Positions 1 to 7,474 of a stretch of DNA of 7,474 bases are shown here, piece by piece (within the stretch, counting starts at the first letter, position 1; each line of letters begins with the position of its first letter). Position numbers and translations under genes: made by a program. The stretch is taken from the IMG/VR virus record IMGVR_UViG_2547132272_000003, positions 1 to 7,474 of that record. One strand, 5' to 3'. This DNA comes from a virus (lineage: Duplodnaviria > Heunggongvirae > Uroviricota > Caudoviricetes). The notes below the pieces were generated by a model. The model was given only the letters and a program-made list of their open reading frames with translations, made no database searches and was not told where the DNA came from.

Positions 1-26
1 CTTACGCTACGTACTTCTCGGGGCGC

Positions 27-632
27 TTACATCGGCGTGGCGCTCACGGTCAGACCACCTGCCGTGGTGGATGCTGACAGGGTGATGTCATTCCCCCAGG
101 CACCTTTGGTCCGGGTGGTGACCGTCAGCTGAGAGGCTTCCGATTGGTATTCCCCCGTAACCAGAAGCGAAGGCGTCTGCGTCATTGCTTCCACCAGTGC
201 CGGAATGATTTTCGACGGTCCATCACCGGTTTCCACATCCACCGAAACCTGCTCACCGGCAACCCATACCGACAGTGTTCCGCTGCTGATTGCCGTACCG
301 TTGACGGTAACTGCGCCGGTTGCTGCCTTTCCTGCGCCACTGTCTGCAATACCGATAACATCCAGTTGCAGATAGCTGTTGGCATTAATGGCCGCGCGCG
401 CCATTGCAGCGGCCAGCGAACCGGCCCCGAAATACAAATCCGCTTCGTCTTCGGAATACACGGAAACGGCATTCAGGGGCGTGGCGGTGCCGCCTGACAG
501 CATCGGGCCAATCACCAGAACACGCTGTTCGTTACCCGGCAGCGTGTTAACGGCCAGCCGGGTATTAAACTCAAAATGCACACCGGGCTTACGGATGCCG
601 CCCGAAATGGTGTCAAACTGAATTTCACTCAT
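27..632 (-). CDS. Tail sheath protein (Mu gpL-like), N-terminal portion only; ORF stops after 201 codons
   Basis: ATG at 632-630 preceded on the minus strand by AGGTGG with a 6-nt spacer, and overlapping the stop of the upstream small ORF (ATGA-type overlap). The N-terminal sequence (…RKPGVHFEFN…RVLVIGPM…FGAGSLAAAMARAA…) resembles the N-domain of contractile-tail sheath proteins, and the position after gp36/gp37/gp38 homologs matches Mu L. In-frame TAA at 29-27. Mu-family sheaths are, from memory, roughly twice this length. Confidence 0.7.
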   Translation of the reverse strand: MSEIQFDTISGGIRKPGVHFEFNTRLAVNTLPGNEQRVLVIGPMLSGGTATPLNAVSVYSEDEADLYFGAGSLAAAMARAAINANSYLQLDVIGIADSGAGKAATGAVTVNGTAISSGTLSVWVAGEQVSVDVETGDGPSKIIPALVEAMTQTPSLLVTGEYQSEASQLTVTTRTKGAWGNDITLSASTTAGGLTVSATPM

Positions 633-867
633 CGGAATCCACCTGTTTCTCTCTCTTCGCCTTCGCTTTTACCTGCACGGCGTCCTGTTCAGTCGTCACG
701 GTGGTTTCAGGCTCATCCTTCACCAGAATCAGGTCACCGTCCTGAACGGCGCGCCGGTAATAAGCGGTGTTCTCAACGGTCACCGCTTCCGTGGTGATGT
801 ATTTCCGGGCGTTATCCTCCATCGGGAACTTCATCCCGGGAGCCGCCTTAACCTTCATTTTGTTCAT
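625..867 (-). CDS. Small conserved Mu-like prophage protein at the gp38 position (80 aa), function unknown
   Basis: ORF with ATG at 867 (second in-frame ATG at 858); overlaps the 3' end of the gp37-like gene by 20 nt and the sheath start by 8 nt. Sits between the K-like and L-like genes as in Mu. Lys/Glu-rich C-terminus. Family assignment is by synteny only. Confidence 0.55.
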   Translation of the reverse strand: MNKMKVKAAPGMKFPMEDNARKYITTEAVTVENTAYYRRAVQDGDLILVKDEPETTVTTEQDAVQVKAKAKREKQVDSDE

Positions 868-1429
868 GCTGTTGCTCTCTTAATTCATCCAGACCACAGA
901 TATCTGCGCCGTATTGCGTACCAATTCGCAGTAAATCCGGGTCAGGGTCTGACAGCCTGCCGTGGTAGCGGTTGAAGAGGCGATCCGCTTCTGCGCCACG
1001 CTCCGGCCATTTGCCGTTCTCCAGCGCGTGCTCCACCCAGCGGGTATCGAACTCACAGGCAAACACGGACATTGCCCGCTCTGCCACGCCGGTGTTAAAC
1101 AGCGTCCTGACCCGCCCGGGTTCGAAATAATCAATCTCCAGCCCCAAATCCTGACCGGTCAGCAGACGACGGACGGATTCAACCAGCTGGTTTGTCCCGA
1201 CCTCATCCCGGACGGTGCCTCCCTGTCTGGCGCTCTGTTCGCTGCGGGTGTTGTAATCACCCACCACAACCACAAAGCGTCCTGTGGCAATGTATTTCCG
1301 GCGTGACGTGGAATAGCGTTCGGTTTTCACGATGCCGCCGAACGTCACCCAGGCTGCCGGAAGGCTGCGAACAATCCGGCCCGGGTCTTCATCCAGTTCA
1401 CCGGCATAGGTGCGGACATCCTGCACCAT
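848..1429 (-). CDS. Mu gp37/K-like protein (DUF1834-type, head completion/neck region); true start probably upstream at a non-canonical codon near 1483
   Basis: 193-aa ORF from the first in-frame ATG (1429). The frame stays open upstream to a TGA at 1510-1508 and encodes a plausible N-terminal extension (ILITDIERALVERLRCGLGH), with GGGAGG at 1498-1493 and overlap with the gp36-like stop (TGA 1485-1483). No ATG, GTG or TTG occurs in that extension. Synteny directly downstream of the gp36-like gene. Confidence 0.75.
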   Translation of the reverse strand: MVQDVRTYAGELDEDPGRIVRSLPAAWVTFGGIVKTERYSTSRRKYIATGRFVVVVGDYNTRSEQSARQGGTVRDEVGTNQLVESVRRLLTGQDLGLEIDYFEPGRVRTLFNTGVAERAMSVFACEFDTRWVEHALENGKWPERGAEADRLFNRYHGRLSDPDPDLLRIGTQYGADICGLDELREQQHEQNEG

Positions 1430-1482
1430 ATGCCCCAGACCACAGCGCAGACGCTCAACCAGCGCCCGTTCAATGTCAGTAA

Positions 1483-1914
1483 TCAGAATGCACCTCCCCG
1501 CGTGGACTCACGCCCGAACTGACGGGAGCCGGAGCGGATACGCACCTGTGACGATGACTGGATCACGCTGCCGGACGTATCCCGCCCGAGGTTGATTTGT
1601 CCTGCCGCGACTTTCTCCAGAAAGCGGATGGCGTCCCGGTAGCGCATCTGAATTTCTTCTGAGCAGATACGGTAATCGGTCGCCAGGTGATAACGGGCGA
1701 TATCGCAGCAGTAACCCACCAGAATCCCCGGGCTGTCAGGCCACGGGGTCCGGTAACGCCCCACCAGATAGCCATCAATCTGGGCACTGGCGCGCGCAAG
1801 CGCGGAGGCCAGTTTTTCTTCGTCGATGAATCCCGTCATGTCTTCATCCGTCAGTGTGCGTGCCTCGCGTTCACTGAATGCCCTGATGAACTGTTCCGGC
1901 GTGGCGTAAGACAT
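1483..1914 (-). CDS. Mu gp36/J-like protein (DUF1320 / Phage_Mu_Gp36 family, head-tail joining)
   Basis: 143-aa ORF; ATG at 1914 preceded by AAGGAG with a 9-nt spacer; starts 3 nt after the stop of the upstream small coiled-coil gene. Size and position match Mu J/gp36. Confidence 0.8.
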   Translation of the reverse strand: MSYATPEQFIRAFSEREARTLTDEDMTGFIDEEKLASALARASAQIDGYLVGRYRTPWPDSPGILVGYCCDIARYHLATDYRICSEEIQMRYRDAIRFLEKVAAGQINLGRDTSGSVIQSSSQVRIRSGSRQFGRESTRGGAF

Positions 1915-1917
1915 GGG

Positions 1918-2259
1918 TTACTTCTCCTTTTTGTCCGCTTTTTGTGTTTTCTGTGCGGCGTTCAGCTGTGCGGTCAGTTCACTGACTTTCTGGCGTTCTT
2001 CTTCCAGCTGCGCTGTCAGTTCGCTGACTTTCTGACGCTCGGCATCCAGCTGTGCGGCCAGCTCATCACCCCGGGCCGCGTCGTTCTGGCCGGACGCTTT
2101 ATCGCGCTCCACCACAATCAGCATGGGGTCAGCCTTCAGCACCGCCAGCTGTTCCGGGGTGAACGCATCCGCAGGCCATGCCTTCGTGGTTGCGCTGTGT
2201 GCCACACCGCAGCGGCGAAAACCCTCACGGCGGGCGGTAATTTCAATCACCTTTTCCAT
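1918..2259 (-). CDS. Small Mu-like prophage protein at the gp35 position: N-terminal globular region plus C-terminal repeat-encoded coiled-coil and Lys-rich tail
   Basis: 113-aa ORF; ATG at 2259 preceded by GGAG with a 7-nt spacer, 3 nt after the T stop (TAA 2265-2263). The C-terminal third is encoded by a 42-bp tandem repeat giving ELxAQLxxERQKVS units. Placed between the major head and gp36-like genes as in Mu. Confidence 0.7.
   Translation of the reverse strand: MEKVIEITARREGFRRCGVAHSATTKAWPADAFTPEQLAVLKADPMLIVVERDKASGQNDAARGDELAAQLDAERQKVSELTAQLEEERQKVSELTAQLNAAQKTQKADKKEK
1963..2064. repeat. In-frame 42-bp direct tandem repeat (about 2.4 copies) inside the gp35-position gene
   Basis: Unit 1 at 1963-2004 (cagctgtgcggtcagttcactgactttctggcgttcttcttc), unit 2 at 2005-2046 (cagctgcgctgtcagttcgctgactttctgacgctcggcatc), partial third copy at 2047-2064 (cagctgtgcggccagctc). 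Copies differ at a few positions. Confidence 0.85.
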
Positions 2260-2262
2260 GCA

Positions 2263-3171
2263 TTACTCCGTCGTACCATCAGAACCAAATGCCATCTGCC
2301 AGAAGCCGTAACCGCCGTTACAGCGCGCTTCGGCACCAAACAGGAACTTCTTACGCTTGAACACGTTGTCGCTGTTGTAGTCCGTCTGCTCCACAAAAAC
2401 AGGCTTTTTACGTAGCTGATAAATCAGCGGTTTCACCGGTTTGGTGGTGTCAAACAGGAACCACGCAGAATCCGACGCCAGCTCCGGCATCACCAGCACT
2501 TCGGCGGTATTGCGGTACGGGTTCGGCGTGCCGTCCGGGAACTTCTCGGCGGTCATCAGGTAGTTCGCGTCATCCTCCAGCGCCGGTGGCACAACCAGCA
2601 GATTCGGGCGAATTTTGAGGGATGCGCCTTCGTCATCTTTCAGACTACGCATGGCCGTACGGGCGGCACCGTAGGAGGCTTTCGCCTCGGCAAGCGAGCC
2701 AACTTTGAGTTTTTTGGTGCCCCTGTTGGACACCGATTTACCGGCGACCAGGTGGTCGGTATCAAAGAACATCTGACCGTCGTAACATGGATTGATAAAA
2801 CCGTTACTGATAAGGGACGCCACAATATCTGCCGGTAGCTCTGCTGCCGACTGTCCGGCTCCTTTCGCCTGAAGGGCATAGCCCATAATCTGGTCGTCCT
2901 CGATGTCGTTACGATCGACTTCAACCGTGGCTTCCCAGTCCTTGTTACGGATGGTGTAGTTAAATGCCGCCAGTGATTTGACGACCTTGTCACCAATCCA
3001 CTCGCGCATTTTCGGGAAACGACTTAACCAGCTGTAGTCGTTTTCCTTGCCGTTTGATGGCACTTCCATTGCCACCTTCTGCCAGTCAGTTGGCGACTGG
3101 TCGAAGGCTTTCTGGAAGGTGGCCTTCAGATTGATAAAAATCTGTTTGACGTTTTTAACGTTGACTAACAC
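2263..3171 (-). CDS. Major head (capsid) subunit, Mu gpT-like
   Basis: Long ORF running to 3213 in the track. I place the start at GTG 3171-3169 because AAGGAG lies 6 nt upstream and this start no longer overlaps the upstream ORF (stop 3184-3182); the in-frame GTG at 3213 and ATG at 3207 lack a Shine-Dalgarno motif. The resulting length (about 302 aa) is close to my recollection of Mu T (about 305 aa). Position after the protease/scaffold gene. Confidence 0.88.
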   Translation of the reverse strand: MLVNVKNVKQIFINLKATFQKAFDQSPTDWQKVAMEVPSNGKENDYSWLSRFPKMREWIGDKVVKSLAAFNYTIRNKDWEATVEVDRNDIEDDQIMGYALQAKGAGQSAAELPADIVASLISNGFINPCYDGQMFFDTDHLVAGKSVSNRGTKKLKVGSLAEAKASYGAARTAMRSLKDDEGASLKIRPNLLVVPPALEDDANYLMTAEKFPDGTPNPYRNTAEVLVMPELASDSAWFLFDTTKPVKPLIYQLRKKPVFVEQTDYNSDNVFKRKKFLFGAEARCNGGYGFWQMAFGSDGTTE

Positions 3172-3181
3172 GTTTTGCTCC

Positions 3182-3577
3182 TTAACTGAAATGAACCCAG
3201 ACGCCATCGCCACAGATGCCGATCACTTTCCCGGCGACAGGACGGGCGCTGCTGTTGTCGGTTTTTGCCACGGTTACGCTGTCTTCCACGTAGCACAGCT
3301 TGCCGACCTGCGATTGTGTGACCGGGTCTGAGGTGCTGTTCACCATCAGAAAATCTTTGCCGCAACGCACCAGAACGGTGACATCGCCATCGCTGCCGGT
3401 GCTGTTATCCGCCCAGCCATCAGACACGCCCAGCGTAATCTGTGAGGCCGTGGCACTGGCCGGAACGGCATAACCGGATGCGTTAACGGCCACCATATGA
3501 CCGCCAAAAATTTCGGTCGCAGCGGCAACCGGCACCGGGTTCAGCTCGCCGTCACGGTAGGGGGTATTGCGATCCAT
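3182..3577 (-). CDS. Small structural-module protein between protease/scaffold and major head genes (131 aa); possibly a capsid decoration/cement-type (DUF2190-like) protein
   Basis: ATG at 3577 directly follows the I stop (TAA 3580-3578), with AGGAG 8 nt upstream. Gly/Val/Ser/Thr-rich sequence ending …GKVIGICGDGVWVHFS. The family call is tentative, from memory of small proteins found at this position in other capsid modules. Confidence 0.6.
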   Translation of the reverse strand: MDRNTPYRDGELNPVPVAAATEIFGGHMVAVNASGYAVPASATASQITLGVSDGWADNSTGSDGDVTVLVRCGKDFLMVNSTSDPVTQSQVGKLCYVEDSVTVAKTDNSSARPVAGKVIGICGDGVWVHFS

Positions 3578-4720
3578 TTACTCATCTCCTGCGTAATAGT
3601 CGTTTCCTGCATAACGGGCGATATCTTCTGGATCAGTGCCCATCATGGAACAAATGGCGATATCGACATCGACGTCATCGCCGGTTTTAATCTGCGCCGG
3701 GGCCGGTGACGGCGTTTTGGGTGGTTTGCCGCCGGTCTGTGTCTGACTGAGCGCAACAAGTTTCGGTGCGTTCTCCAGCCAGGACTTAAAGCCGTTGATA
3801 TCGCGACCGGCGTAATCTTTCGCCCAGTCTTCCTGGGCCGGAAGCAGTCGCCCGTCAGACAGTGCCGCCTGAATCAGTGCCCCGGCTTCGGCCTCACCGG
3901 ACTGTTGCGCCAGTGCGGCATAACGCCCCTGAAGTTCTTCAAAGGCAGCGAGGGAAATGTGTTTTGACGGGTCATAGGCATTGGCTGACAGGCTGGCGAT
4001 TTGCTCGTCTTTCTGATTCAGCAGGGCCAGCAGACCAACAGAAGCCGCTGCCGTTCCTTTGCCACCAGAGACAGCATCAATAATTTTTTGCAGCTCTGCG
4101 CATACTTCCTCTGCGGTTGAGGTTTCCGGCAGCGTCAGCAGCCAGCGTAACTGCGCGAGTAAATTTGCTAATTGTTCCGGGTTCACGGTTTTGGTCTCCG
4201 TTTCAGTTGACAGACTCGCCAGACGGCTGGCCGCAGCCAGCATGACCGCGTCCATACCGTCGAGCGCAGGGGTATTGGTCAGCGCAGCGTGTAACAGCTC
4301 CAGCACTTCGCCGCGCTTGTTGTAGGCAAAAACAGGGGAAATAAACTTGTACTCACCGGCGGCAATCATGGCCGCCGCGTTCTCCGTCCACTCCACACCG
4401 GTGGCATACAGGCCCGCGCCTTCTCGCCATTCCACCTGGCTGAACCAGCCCGCCGCCGGGGCGGGCTTGCCGTTGTTTACGGCGCGCAGCGTCTGATGTT
4501 CGTAATCAATGACAAAAGGCGTGGTACGGGCTGCCACCTGCGCGACAAGCTGCGCGGCCAGTTCAGCGGTCAGCACCCATTTACCGCTTTCGACTTCATC
4601 GGTATGTGGGCGACCATCCACCGCGCTGAACTCGCCCGCCGGAAACAGCTGGATTTCGCTGTGGGTTGCTTTAGTAATTTCGAGGCTTAATGCCGCAATG
4701 TTCAGTTTCATACGCGGCAT
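3578..4720 (-). CDS. Protease/scaffold protein, Mu gpI-like (scaffold Z expected as the C-terminal portion of the same frame)
   Basis: Long ORF; frame open up to GTG at 4765. I place the start at ATG 4720 (MPRMKLNIAALSLEI…); ATG 4711 and GTG 4765 are alternatives, and none has a convincing Shine-Dalgarno motif. Size (about 380 aa), the Ala/Leu-rich helical C-terminal half typical of a scaffold, and position between G and T match Mu I/Z. Confidence 0.82.
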   Translation of the reverse strand: MPRMKLNIAALSLEITKATHSEIQLFPAGEFSAVDGRPHTDEVESGKWVLTAELAAQLVAQVAARTTPFVIDYEHQTLRAVNNGKPAPAAGWFSQVEWREGAGLYATGVEWTENAAAMIAAGEYKFISPVFAYNKRGEVLELLHAALTNTPALDGMDAVMLAAASRLASLSTETETKTVNPEQLANLLAQLRWLLTLPETSTAEEVCAELQKIIDAVSGGKGTAAASVGLLALLNQKDEQIASLSANAYDPSKHISLAAFEELQGRYAALAQQSGEAEAGALIQAALSDGRLLPAQEDWAKDYAGRDINGFKSWLENAPKLVALSQTQTGGKPPKTPSPAPAQIKTGDDVDVDIAICSMMGTDPEDIARYAGNDYYAGDE

Positions 4721-4765
4721 GATGACGGAAGGGGAACACGGGGTACTGTGGAGGGTGTTCAGCAC

Positions 4766-4919
4766 CCTGCCATAACGCGAAAGGATAAAAGGGGAAATAA
4801 AACCGTTTTTAAAACCCTTTTAAAAACGATTCTGGCGGTATTTATGGGGTGCGGTGCTGTAATGCTCATCCGTGAGGCGTTTATGTCGTCAGAGTCGATT
4901 ACAGCGCGTTTGTGGTCAT
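4766..4919 (-). promoter_or_regulatory. AT-rich spacer between G and I; candidate late promoter region (Mu P_I position) containing a perfect inverted repeat
   Basis: Only notable non-coding gap in the window and markedly AT-richer than its surroundings. In Mu the C-activated late promoter P_I lies immediately upstream of gene I. Contains TTAT/ATAA and CCCC elements (minus strand: CCCCATAAATA … TTTCCCCTTTTATCC), but I cannot match them to the C-binding consensus from memory. Confidence 0.35.
4804..4828. repeat. Perfect inverted repeat: 11-bp arms (cgtttttaaaa / ttttaaaaacg) around a 3-nt loop
   Basis: Read directly: 4804-4814 cgtttttaaaa, 4815-4817 ccc, 4818-4828 ttttaaaaacg. Each arm contains the self-complementary octamer TTTTAAAA. 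On the minus strand it is followed by GTTTTATTT. Confidence 0.85.
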
Positions 4920-5471
4920 TCAGTCAATCACACGCGCAAAATAGCGGTTTGCGGTGTTCTCCAGCTCGTCGATGTCGTCCTGCACAAGCTGAAGGAAGGG
5001 GCGCGCGGGCATGTTGACCGTATACGCTCCGACCGTTGCGCTCTGTACAAAATTACTGTTGCGCTTTTTCACAAAGCGGGTGCTGACGCTGCCGTTTTTG
5101 TACTGTTTAAAATACAGGTTCTGCGTCCGTGCCTGATGGCGGATTTCGCCGCCTTCGTTGTGGATACGGGCGTAACGGACGTTTGTCCCGACCGTGGCCT
5201 CGTTATTGTTAACCGCAGAGCGGATACTGGCAGCCAGTCGCCCGGACTTCTGAAGGATTTGCCCGGGGCCGCGTCGCTTCGCATAAGCCGGACTCCAGCC
5301 CATCCATTTCGGGCGACCCTGTTGTTCAAAGTTAGTCTCAACCGCATCCAGCATGGAACCCGCAAGCGCCGTCATCAGGTCGCGCCGGTCCTTCACGGAA
5401 CGAATCAGTTTCCCCAGCGTGGTGTTATACGCGCTTAAATCAATCTTAATATCCAGTTTACCGCTGCTCAT
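4920..5471 (-). CDS. Virion morphogenesis protein, Mu gpG-like
   Basis: 183-aa ORF; ATG at 5471 overlaps the F stop (ATGA, TGA 5470-5468) with GGAGG 4 nt upstream. Position between F and I as in Mu. Mu G is shorter from memory, so an internal start cannot be excluded, but the RBS and overlap favour 5471. Confidence 0.7.
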   Translation of the reverse strand: MSSGKLDIKIDLSAYNTTLGKLIRSVKDRRDLMTALAGSMLDAVETNFEQQGRPKWMGWSPAYAKRRGPGQILQKSGRLAASIRSAVNNNEATVGTNVRYARIHNEGGEIRHQARTQNLYFKQYKNGSVSTRFVKKRNSNFVQSATVGAYTVNMPARPFLQLVQDDIDELENTANRYFARVID

Positions 5472-6634
5472 GATGCCTCCGGTGTGTCCTGCATAACCCA
5501 GTCTGTCAGCACGTCATCCTCAACCGTCACCACCGACCAGCGGTCGCCCGACTGTAACGCATACCGCCACGCGTTGCCGTCCTGCGTGACATGCTCCGCC
5601 CGTTCGATAGTCTGCTGCATCAGCACATAGTCGGCGGCGGTCGGGGGCGCGTCTGCTGCACTGAGGCGCTTCATAACGTCAGCCGTAAGGTTTACCGTCT
5701 GCCGTGCAGCGCCCGTGGCGGCGACCTGTTCTGGTGAACGGATGGCCAGCGGATATCGCTGGCGCGCATCCAGTTCGCTGACGTTCGCCAGTCCCCGGGC
5801 AAAATCCGGCCCGGTCAGGGTGCCGGTAACATACTGGCGGGCGCTGCGGTAATCGTATTTTTCCAGTTCCGGCTGCCATGCCACTTTGCCGGGGTTAAAA
5901 CCGAAGCCCGGGTCGGCGGTATACACGGAGCCGTCCGGCATCTTCAGCCCCATTGTTCTGATGGTCTGGCCCGGCTGACCATATTCCTGTTCAACCTCAA
6001 CCAGTCGCCCATCGCTGCTCTGCACCGTCAGGCCATATTTCTCCACATCAGACGCCGAACGCGCCCGGATACGGCAGCGGCATCCGTACCCGTCCGGCGC
6101 GTAGAAATACTCCCAGACCGGGTCATCCGCCCGGGCGGTAAAACCGTTCATGGCGGCGTGTTTCGGGCGGGTGTGAAGGTCCATCACCGCCACGCGCTCA
6201 AAATAAGGCCGGTCGGCCACGTTCGCCATCTGCTGCTGATAGCGTCCGGCGTTGTAGGACGACTGAATGTTGGTATCAAATATCGTGCGCAACCGGCGCG
6301 GCGTCAGCTGCCTGCCGTGCAGTTCGCCGGTGTCCTCGTCCACAATCAGCCGTTTACCCAGCCAGCCTTTTTTCTCCAGTAACGGCTCCAGTTGTGCAGC
6401 AAACTCCCGGAACGTCCCGCCGTCAGCCAGTGCCGCCGTCAGGCCGTCACGGATATCCTTCAGCACATCCAGTTTCAGCACACCCGCCACCGTGAACGCC
6501 CGGGCGTGTGCGATGTCCTTCACATCGTGCCAGCGGAAGCCGATAACGTATCCCTTGCTTTCGAAATACGTAATCGCTTCTTCCGGTTTCAGGGTGTACG
6601 CATACCCCAGGTCAACATCGTCAGCTGTCGGCAT
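5468..6634 (-). CDS. Head morphogenesis protein, Mu gpF-like (Phage_Mu_F family)
   Basis: 388-aa ORF; ATG at 6634 overlaps the portal 3' end by 14 nt; G-rich stretch (GGGGG) 7 nt upstream. Position directly downstream of the portal gene, as for Mu F/gp30. Confidence 0.8.
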   Translation of the reverse strand: MPTADDVDLGYAYTLKPEEAITYFESKGYVIGFRWHDVKDIAHARAFTVAGVLKLDVLKDIRDGLTAALADGGTFREFAAQLEPLLEKKGWLGKRLIVDEDTGELHGRQLTPRRLRTIFDTNIQSSYNAGRYQQQMANVADRPYFERVAVMDLHTRPKHAAMNGFTARADDPVWEYFYAPDGYGCRCRIRARSASDVEKYGLTVQSSDGRLVEVEQEYGQPGQTIRTMGLKMPDGSVYTADPGFGFNPGKVAWQPELEKYDYRSARQYVTGTLTGPDFARGLANVSELDARQRYPLAIRSPEQVAATGAARQTVNLTADVMKRLSAADAPPTAADYVLMQQTIERAEHVTQDGNAWRYALQSGDRWSVVTVEDDVLTDWVMQDTPEAS

Positions 6635-7474
6635 TCAGTCGCCCCCAGATATCCGCCACAAAGAATGCCTGTGTCAGCAACTGCCGCAGCGTGTCATCCG
6701 GCAGTTCCGGCCACGCTTCCGCCAGTACGTTCATGGCCTCGTCCGCATCCCGGCCTTCCTGTATGGCCTGCACCAGTGGGGCCACCAGTTCGTTCATCCC
6801 CTGCGCGATGGCCTCTGCCGGAAGCTCTGCCCGGTCGATGGCGCGCTGTGCCGGGTCGTCCTCCCCGTTGTCCTGCTGACTGAGTGCGACAACATTCAGC
6901 CGCTCACGCAGCTGGCTGAGGCCCGCCTGCACAGGGAGACGCTGTGCCACCGGCACCAGCACCTCTTCGCCGTCTTTCGGGGTGGGGATGCCGGTTTTTT
7001 TGCGCACCCACGACGCCGGAATATCCTTCATTCCCACACTGTTGAGCAACACGTTGACGGCTTCTGCCACACCCTTAATGTCGGCTTCCTGCTGCACATC
7101 AAACACCAGTCGCGGAAGACGGCGTGGCGGGACATCCTGCCAGCCGTTCAGGCTGGCCATCATCTGTATCAGGCTGCTGAACATGCCGGACAGCTGGCGA
7201 GCATCGGCGGCCAGAATGTCGTGCCGGACCTCGTTATGCACATTACCCAGCGCGTTGGTGGAGGTTTTACCGTCAGCCTGGCTGGTCAGCGTACTGCCCA
7301 GAATCACTTTTGAGGTGGTGCGCTCCGCCCATTCCACCATCGACATGAACGCCTCCGGCCCGCCGGACGCGGCTTCCTTGAACTCGATTTCATTACCCTG
7401 CGGCAGGGCTGCCACCGCTTCATGGCCCAGATTAACCAGGGCTTCGAGAATGTTGTCCCGGTCCTCGTCACTGG
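6621..7474 (-). CDS. Portal protein, Mu gp29-like (DUF935 family); 3' portion only, N-terminus beyond the window
   Basis: The frame is open from the window edge (7472) down to TGA at 6623-6621. The translated edge region reads …SDEDRDNILEALVNLGHEAVAALPQGNEIEF…, so the ORF-track start at 7415 (a GTG) is not the real start. Position upstream of the F-like gene. Confidence 0.8.
   Translation of the reverse strand, partial: SDEDRDNILEALVNLGHEAVAALPQGNEIEFKEAASGGPEAFMSMVEWAERTTSKVILGSTLTSQADGKTSTNALGNVHNEVRHDILAADARQLSGMFSSLIQMMASLNGWQDVPPRRLPRLVFDVQQEADIKGVAEAVNVLLNSVGMKDIPASWVRKKTGIPTPKDGEEVLVPVAQRLPVQAGLSQLRERLNVVALSQQDNGEDDPAQRAIDRAELPAEAIAQGMNELVAPLVQAIQEGRDADEAMNVLAEAWPELPDDTLRQLLTQAFFVADIWGRLNADS

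Follow-up and report, generated by a model that had tools for sequence, protein, structure and literature searches.

The contractile tail sheath gene of a Mu-like prophage of Escherichia sp. TW09231 has almost certainly been split by simple transposition of an IS66-family insertion sequence (IS). The IS would have entered between sheath codons 201 and 202, in the opposite orientation to the phage late genes, and simple transposition would have duplicated the 8-bp target ATCGGCGT. Read inward from the IS right end, the sequence G-TAA-GCG would close the phage frame at once and leave a 201-aa N-terminal fragment, with the remaining 272 codons and the tail tube, tape-measure, and baseplate genes lying intact beyond the IS. 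The stretch of DNA analyzed here (7,474 nt, hereafter the window) would then end 30 nt into the IS for the reason that short-read assemblies break in multicopy repeats.

Source of the DNA and gene neighborhood

The window is the entire contig AEJW01000383.1 (7,474 nt) of assembly GCA_000208465.2, from Escherichia sp. TW09231. The AEJW accession corresponds to strain TW09231 of Escherichia cryptic clade III, which comes from a Michigan freshwater beach (accession table, PMC7716201). On the minus strand it carries Mu-type late genes in the order portal (truncated at the right window edge), Mu F-like, G-like, protease/scaffold, and a 131-aa gene, followed on the same strand by the gpT major head protein, a FluMu_N-like gene, Gp36, Gp37, DUF2635, and the sheath ORF. 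The Mu Gp37-like and Gp36-like genes (848-1914, minus strand; Pfam PF08873, PF07030) show the synteny of a Mu-type late operon, with the same order in the prophage of E. coli TUM1881. The DUF2635 gene (625-867, minus strand; PF10948) is directly upstream of the sheath, in a layout also found in intact relatives; it overlaps the sheath start by 8 nt and serves as context that fixes this start. The sheath locus thus occupies the position expected in a Mu-type late operon, between the DUF2635 and tail tube genes, and the usual length of ~470 aa applies to the locus as a whole, the ORF itself being shorter.

Some other features of these genes were recorded. Inside the 113-aa FluMu_N/HI1506-like gene (1918-2259, minus strand) is a 42-nt tandem repeat of 2.6 copies with a 75% match (1956-2065), which yields the repeated peptide ERQKVSELTAQL in the charged tail of the protein; this tail is probably a coiled coil. 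The late genes leave one sizeable non-coding gap, at 4721-4919, which separates the G-like gene (4920-5471) from the protease/scaffold gene and contains a 12-nt repeat, TAAAACCCTTTT, in 2.5 copies (4798-4827). No sigma-70-like promoter was found in this gap, whose position presumably matches that of P_I, the late promoter of phage Mu that is activated by C. Where the protease/scaffold gene (3578-4765) starts is ambiguous, as its product has 395 aa from the GTG at 4765 (mechanical ORF), 380 aa according to gene callers, and 371 aa in the TUM1881 annotation; likewise, the Gp37-like gene encodes 193 or 212 aa, depending on the annotation. A 348-aa ORF on the plus strand (6267-7313), opposite the Mu F-like and portal genes, has no family evidence and, the coding DNA here being GC-rich, is most likely a spurious antisense frame.

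The sheath ORF and its early stop

The sheath ORF runs on the minus strand from 632 to 27, with an ATG start, 201 codons, and a TAA stop at 29-27. These coordinates and the sheath-like nature of the product, both proposed in the initial annotation, agree with our results, since the codons at 30-632 (minus strand) are the 5' fragment, codons 1-201, of a Mu-like (gpL-like) contractile tail sheath gene, and their product is 201/201 identical to the intact 473-aa sheath of the TUM1881 prophage. The final 30 nt of the minus strand read gtaagcgccccgagaagtacgtagcgtaag and hold one stop per frame; besides the TAA at 29-27, the TAG (9-7) and TAA (4-2) listed earlier for the other two frames are indeed present.

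The ORF has ~42% of the length of a normal sheath (469-476 aa in full-length relatives). Its product is deposited at NCBI as WP_001290030.1, under the name 'hypothetical protein, partial [Escherichia sp. TW09231]', and equals residues 1-201 of a 473-aa protein annotated as 'phage tail sheath C-terminal domain-containing protein'. In a Pfam search, it showed a weak match to Phage_sheath_domII (PF17481) at residues 100-192, which at 24.4 bits is below the cutoff of 31.4, and no match to Phage_sheath_1 (PF04984) or Phage_sheath_1C (PF17482); the NCBIfam models gave zero matches. Judging by its sequence, then, what the window encodes is a fragment of a member of the sheath family and not a functional member.

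An IS66-family terminal repeat at the window end

Window positions 1-1500 were compared by megablast with 5,426 complete E. coli genomes. The search returned 55 related prophages with 90-99.9% identity, every match beginning at query position 30 and none at position 1, and the homology to the intact sheath gene stops exactly at 30/31. When positions 1-60 were searched alone, the part from 30 to 60 led to the prophages, and the part from 1 to 32 matched more than 1,500 genomes at ~97-100% identity. In three inspected E. coli copies of IS66-family elements, the 30-nt stretch starts 3 nt past the tnpC stop, and the flanks diverge directly after ...GGGGCGCTTAC. Base-level alignment places the switch point at ...CGCTTAC|ATCGGCGT; at the break point the intact gene goes on ...ATG GCG AAC GGT..., and beyond position 30 it is ...GGCGAACGGTGAAATGG. 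Of the explanations offered in the initial annotation, it is therefore 'a junction' that holds, as a boundary between phage and IS66-family sequence at 30/31.

The terminal inverted repeats of IS66-family elements are ~20-30 bp long and start with 5'-GTAAGCG (PMC11946415, citing TnCentral/ISfinder). The IS end in the window, ...GGGGCGCTTAC, is the complement of this signature. Read on the complementary strand (window 30-1), the right end is GTAAGCGCCCCGAG..., and the left end, which was recovered on another contig (Ga0209547_100122 from 14855; see below), is GTAAGCGCTCCGTC...; 11 of the first 12 nt are common to both IS ends, and the repeat is imperfect further inward. By its signature and by its identity to the 30 nt that follow tnpC elsewhere, the segment at 1-30 (plus strand) can be assigned as the right terminal inverted repeat (IRR), that is, the last 30 nt, of an IS66-family element whose genes are on the plus strand and whose tnpA-tnpB-tnpC body is located beyond the left edge of the window.

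The TAA that closes the 201-codon ORF (27-29, minus strand) is made up of bases 2-4 of the terminal repeat (G-TAA-GCG) of the IS and is not derived from the phage gene. Position 30, the third base of the Met201 codon, is formally IS-derived yet the same as the native base, so that Met201 is the last native codon and the 201-aa product carries zero foreign residues. A nonsense-truncated L gene, as was first suggested, is thus not what the window contains: there is no point mutation, and the stop falls inside the terminal inverted repeat after codon 201. More generally, an ORF that closes no more than 30 nt from a contig end may be reading into an IS terminal repeat. Each of the three frames contains a stop in IS66 ends.

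The reciprocal junction and the target-site duplication

An 8-bp target-site duplication is the norm for the IS66 family (PMC3916326; PMC11946415). If the insertion was simple, its far side should consist of the distal sheath, ATCGGCGT, and GTAAGCG. A 26-mer with these three parts, CACCGTTCGCCATCGGCGTGTAAGCG, was built from the intact allele and used in an exact search of a metagenome collection. It had one match, 120 nt from the end of Ga0209547_100122 (14836-14861), where the sequence is ...CACCGTTCGCC-ATCGGCGT-GTAAGCG...; past this junction the contig reads GTAAGCGCTCCGTCTG... and then enters the start of tnpA. The contig comes from the same JGI metagenome (3300026224) as one of the contigs that are identical to the window (see below). 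The reciprocal junction was also found in the ENA sample of assembly ERZ27241745, identical to the JGI junction over the common stretch.

The octamer ATCGGCGT is therefore present at both junctions, at 31-38 of the window and, as a second copy, beside the IS left end on a different contig, and it occurs as a single copy in the intact gene. The direct repeat that can be read is 10 nt long, with one coincidental extra base on each side, and the duplication itself is set at 8 nt by the conserved IS ends found elsewhere.

On the partner contig, the region upstream of the reciprocal junction encodes the remainder of the sheath, products of 124 and 127 aa, a tape-measure protein of 756 aa (PF10145), a DNA-circularisation protein of 449 aa, and baseplate proteins. 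The tail tube and tape-measure genes that the initial annotation had advised looking for do follow, and the downstream tail genes are intact on this contig. Another check it proposed was whether homology to the sheath resumes after the stop: it does not resume within the window, but it does past the far end of the IS, on a different contig of this genome.

That the distal half belongs to TW09231 itself was seen at the protein level. As the window ends with 30 nt of the IS, the TW09231 partner contig was expected to start ~30 nt inside the IS, which predicts a partial protein of 285 aa formed by ITRRYRRSAY (10 codons of the IS left end), TPM, and sheath residues 202-473, the sheath-derived part being 199-473. 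In an exact look-up of ten start variants, only the 285-aa form exists. It is UniRef100_UPI000493F70C of Escherichia sp. TW09231, named 'phage tail sheath C-terminal domain-containing protein'. Because this predicted protein is recorded under TW09231, both halves of the sheath are present in its genome, each at one end of an IS. From the matching duplication, and not from one molecule, we infer that the two halves are physically linked through a single IS. The two contigs of TW09231 can be scaffolded across one IS66-family element, and in annotation WP_001290030.1 (201 aa) and the 285-aa sheath C-terminal protein should be treated as halves of one IS-disrupted gene.

These results bear on a different outcome of the same event, in which the IS caused a deletion or rearrangement that took away the distal sheath and the tail genes and left a prophage remnant. 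IS elements often border prophage deletions, and one junction only lies within the window; however, the 8-bp duplication at the other junction matches, the gene is there in full from that point on, the tube, tape-measure, DNA-circularisation, and baseplate genes follow the distal sheath, and the predicted distal fragment is in the protein set of TW09231. We regard such a loss as very unlikely.

The junction in independent assemblies

Two metagenome contigs, k141_9134 of ENA ERZ27241745 (29.7 kb) and Ga0209547_100059 of JGI 3300026224 (28.4 kb), each match the window at all 7,474 nt (100% identity) and have the same junction. They extend 111 and 97 nt further, respectively, into the 3' end of tnpC and then stop, and the added sequence gives a weak match to PF13817 (DDE_Tnp_IS66_C). 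All three assemblies break inside the IS because it is a multicopy repeat. At the opposite end of the window (7415-7474), the TW09231 contig stops in the middle of the portal gene, where the two metagenome contigs run on with 100% identity and no repeat boundary is visible; this break may reflect low coverage or the presence of a second related prophage.

The same IS insertion, with both junctions, occurs in two unrelated metagenome assemblies (JGI 3300026224 and ENA ERZ27241745). Since the contigs involved are identical to the window, the same clone or a very close clade III relative was present in those samples.

The agreement of three assemblies from different pipelines shows that the junction is neither a chimera nor a base-calling error, and the sequencing or assembly artefact considered in the initial annotation does not account for it. 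In a chimera, the phage contig would carry a misjoined IS end, and the true gene would be intact. This could be suspected, as the junction is at the very end of the contig, where misjoins and k-mer overhangs occur, and the 30-nt overhang resembles an assembler overlap. Nevertheless, the junction is common to three assemblies from different pipelines and samples and is extended by 97-111 nt in two of them, and a misjoin would not yield a reciprocal junction with an exact 8-bp duplication, which makes this origin extremely unlikely.

It is hardly conceivable that the TAA at 29-27 was created by a point nonsense mutation or a base-calling error in a continuous sheath gene. This proposal accounts solely for an in-frame stop at 42% of the normal length. 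Past the break, however, the window shows no similarity to the intact gene: TUM1881 reads TGAATATCCGGGTCCATTTCACCGTTCGCC where the aligned window reads CTTACGCTACGTACTTCTCGGGGCGCTTAC, this window sequence is an IS66-family end, and the same junction is found in independent assemblies.

The rejoined sheath and its intact relatives

In silico removal of the IS and of one duplicate restored an uninterrupted ORF of 473 codons. The rejoined sheath is identical at 473/473 residues to WP_247779533.1, from the E. coli TUM1881 prophage, and contains Phage_sheath_1 (PF04984) at 208-361 and Phage_sheath_1C (PF17482) at 371-471, both above the Pfam cutoff. The insertion site is located past the weakly detected beta-sandwich domain (100-192) and ahead of both conserved core domains. 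In TUM1881, the best match, the sheath gene has 1,422 nt (473 aa) and is followed by two small genes and by the tape-measure and DNA-circularisation genes. The likeness extends to the identity of residues 1-201 and to the same gene order of Gp36, Gp37, DUF2635, sheath, tube, and tape measure.

The 1,422-nt sheath gene is covered over 100% of its length in 55/55 related prophages of the complete E. coli genomes. A short sheath in closely related intact phages, which according to the initial annotation would have counted against a truncation, is therefore not found: every one of them is full-length. The best 120 protein homologues in Enterobacterales are nearly all 469-476 aa long, and the shorter ones are mostly labelled partial. 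Among more distant phages, the sheaths of Klebsiella phage ST405-OXA48phi1.1 (59% identity), Mannheimia phage 3927AP2 (45%), and Haemophilus phage SuMu (44.5%) all align over the full 473 aa. The window product differs from those of TUM1881, ST405-OXA48phi1.1, and SuMu in ending at residue 201, without both core domains. That this lineage naturally has a short (~200 aa) or two-gene sheath has nothing in its favor except the ORF length and, given the full 1,422-nt gene in 55/55 related prophages, the 469-476 aa of the Enterobacterales homologues, and the alignment of ST405-OXA48phi1.1, 3927AP2, and SuMu over the whole 473 aa, can for practical purposes be dismissed.

The disrupted allele was present in 0/5,426 complete E. 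coli genomes, in which no place covered >=80% of window positions 1-60, and an exact search showed that the window junction is absent from the GTDB species-representative genomes. In a phage collection, no megablast match to window positions 1-1500 was obtained, and the best protein match had 59% identity. To judge from these matches, this Mu-like element is known at the DNA level only as a prophage.

Probable consequences for the tail and the distal fragment

The 201-aa fragment would comprise the N-terminal region and the surface beta-sandwich domain of the sheath. Because the core domains of all sheath homologues are missing, it is not expected to polymerise into a sheath, and we infer that no functional sheath is made. 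The prophage is probably unable to make contractile tails, and its head genes look intact. That the prophage may be tail-defective, as the initial annotation suggested, is in this way probable. An effect on the genes beyond the sheath is also plausible, because the IS puts ~2.8 kb of untranslated antisense DNA between the late promoter and the genes for the tube, tape measure, and baseplate, and polarity on the downstream tail genes would be likely. A simple consensus scan of the phage-sense strand of the related IS (NMBU-W12E19-type) found no intrinsic terminator. This prophage should be scored as probably defective in tail assembly although its other late genes all look intact.

As the ATG of Met201 is repeated by the duplication, the distal fragment keeps an in-frame ATG, from which gene callers call a 273-aa product. 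In exact sequence look-ups, this 273-aa form was present in JGI, ENA, and Logan, and the distal products starting from TTG (292 and 291 aa) and from another ATG (268 aa) were absent. The nearest Shine-Dalgarno-like sequence, GGAG, ends 13 nt upstream of the ATG of the distal fragment.

Two other forms of split sheath turned up and were set aside as evidence on the TW09231 locus. A 225-aa form (GCA_036681295.1, 9259-10678) and a second instance of the 273-aa form (Logan SRR15989181, 3436-4855) both come from sheath genes split by frameshifts, with no IS, and are unrelated events or indel errors. In GCA_036681295.1 many other prophage genes are fragmented as well, which suggests an indel-rich assembly rather than biology.

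A natural two-subunit sheath is found in type VI secretion systems, where it is formed by TssB/TssC (VipA/VipB). By analogy, the two halves of the split gene might work as a two-piece sheath, with the 273-aa part providing both core domains and the 201-aa part the N-terminal arm and the surface domain. We consider this arrangement very improbable, because the GGAG is 13 nt upstream of the ATG and there is no sign of maintenance by selection.

The inserted element and comparison with known systems

The sequenced ends of the IS, 127 nt on the left and 141 nt on the right, are identical at 126/127 and 138/141 positions to a copy in E. coli NMBU-W12E19. This copy spans 2,757 bp, is flanked by an 8-bp duplication of its own, TTTTCACG, and encodes TnpA (NF038385), TnpB (NF033819, PF05717), and a 533-aa IS66 DDE transposase (NF033517, 464 bits; PF03050). 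It sits inside the tnpA of another IS66-like element, where it is flanked by TTTTCACG, as a nested IS66-in-IS66 arrangement (2815-5957). RefSeq labels a more distant copy of the IS 'IS66-like element ISSfl3 family'. The parts of the TW09231 copy that have been assembled are 141 nt at the right end and ~140 nt at the left end, with the first tnpA codons and the last ~35 tnpC codons (with the weak PF13817 match); its interior is unassembled, and by comparison with its close relative it would measure ~2.76 kb and be of the tnpA-tnpB-tnpC type. Like the NMBU-W12E19 copy, it has GTAAGCG at both ends and an 8-bp duplication, and the layout is also similar, with the right end 3 nt past the tnpC stop and the left end ~80 nt before tnpA. 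Nothing in it is different in kind from the IS66-family elements of E. coli and Shigella.

Genes disrupted by IS elements are a general phenomenon in the cryptic and defective prophages of E. coli and Shigella, and IS insertion is an ordinary, already known, and well-understood way of breaking prophage genes. The TW09231 sheath gene resembles the usual cases in that a multicopy IS sits in a structural gene and draft assemblies break there. It differs from them in the apparent age of the event: the insertion would be very recent, because the rejoined ORF is 100% identical at the protein level to the intact allele and both copies of the duplication are identical, and the prophage has no other visible decay.
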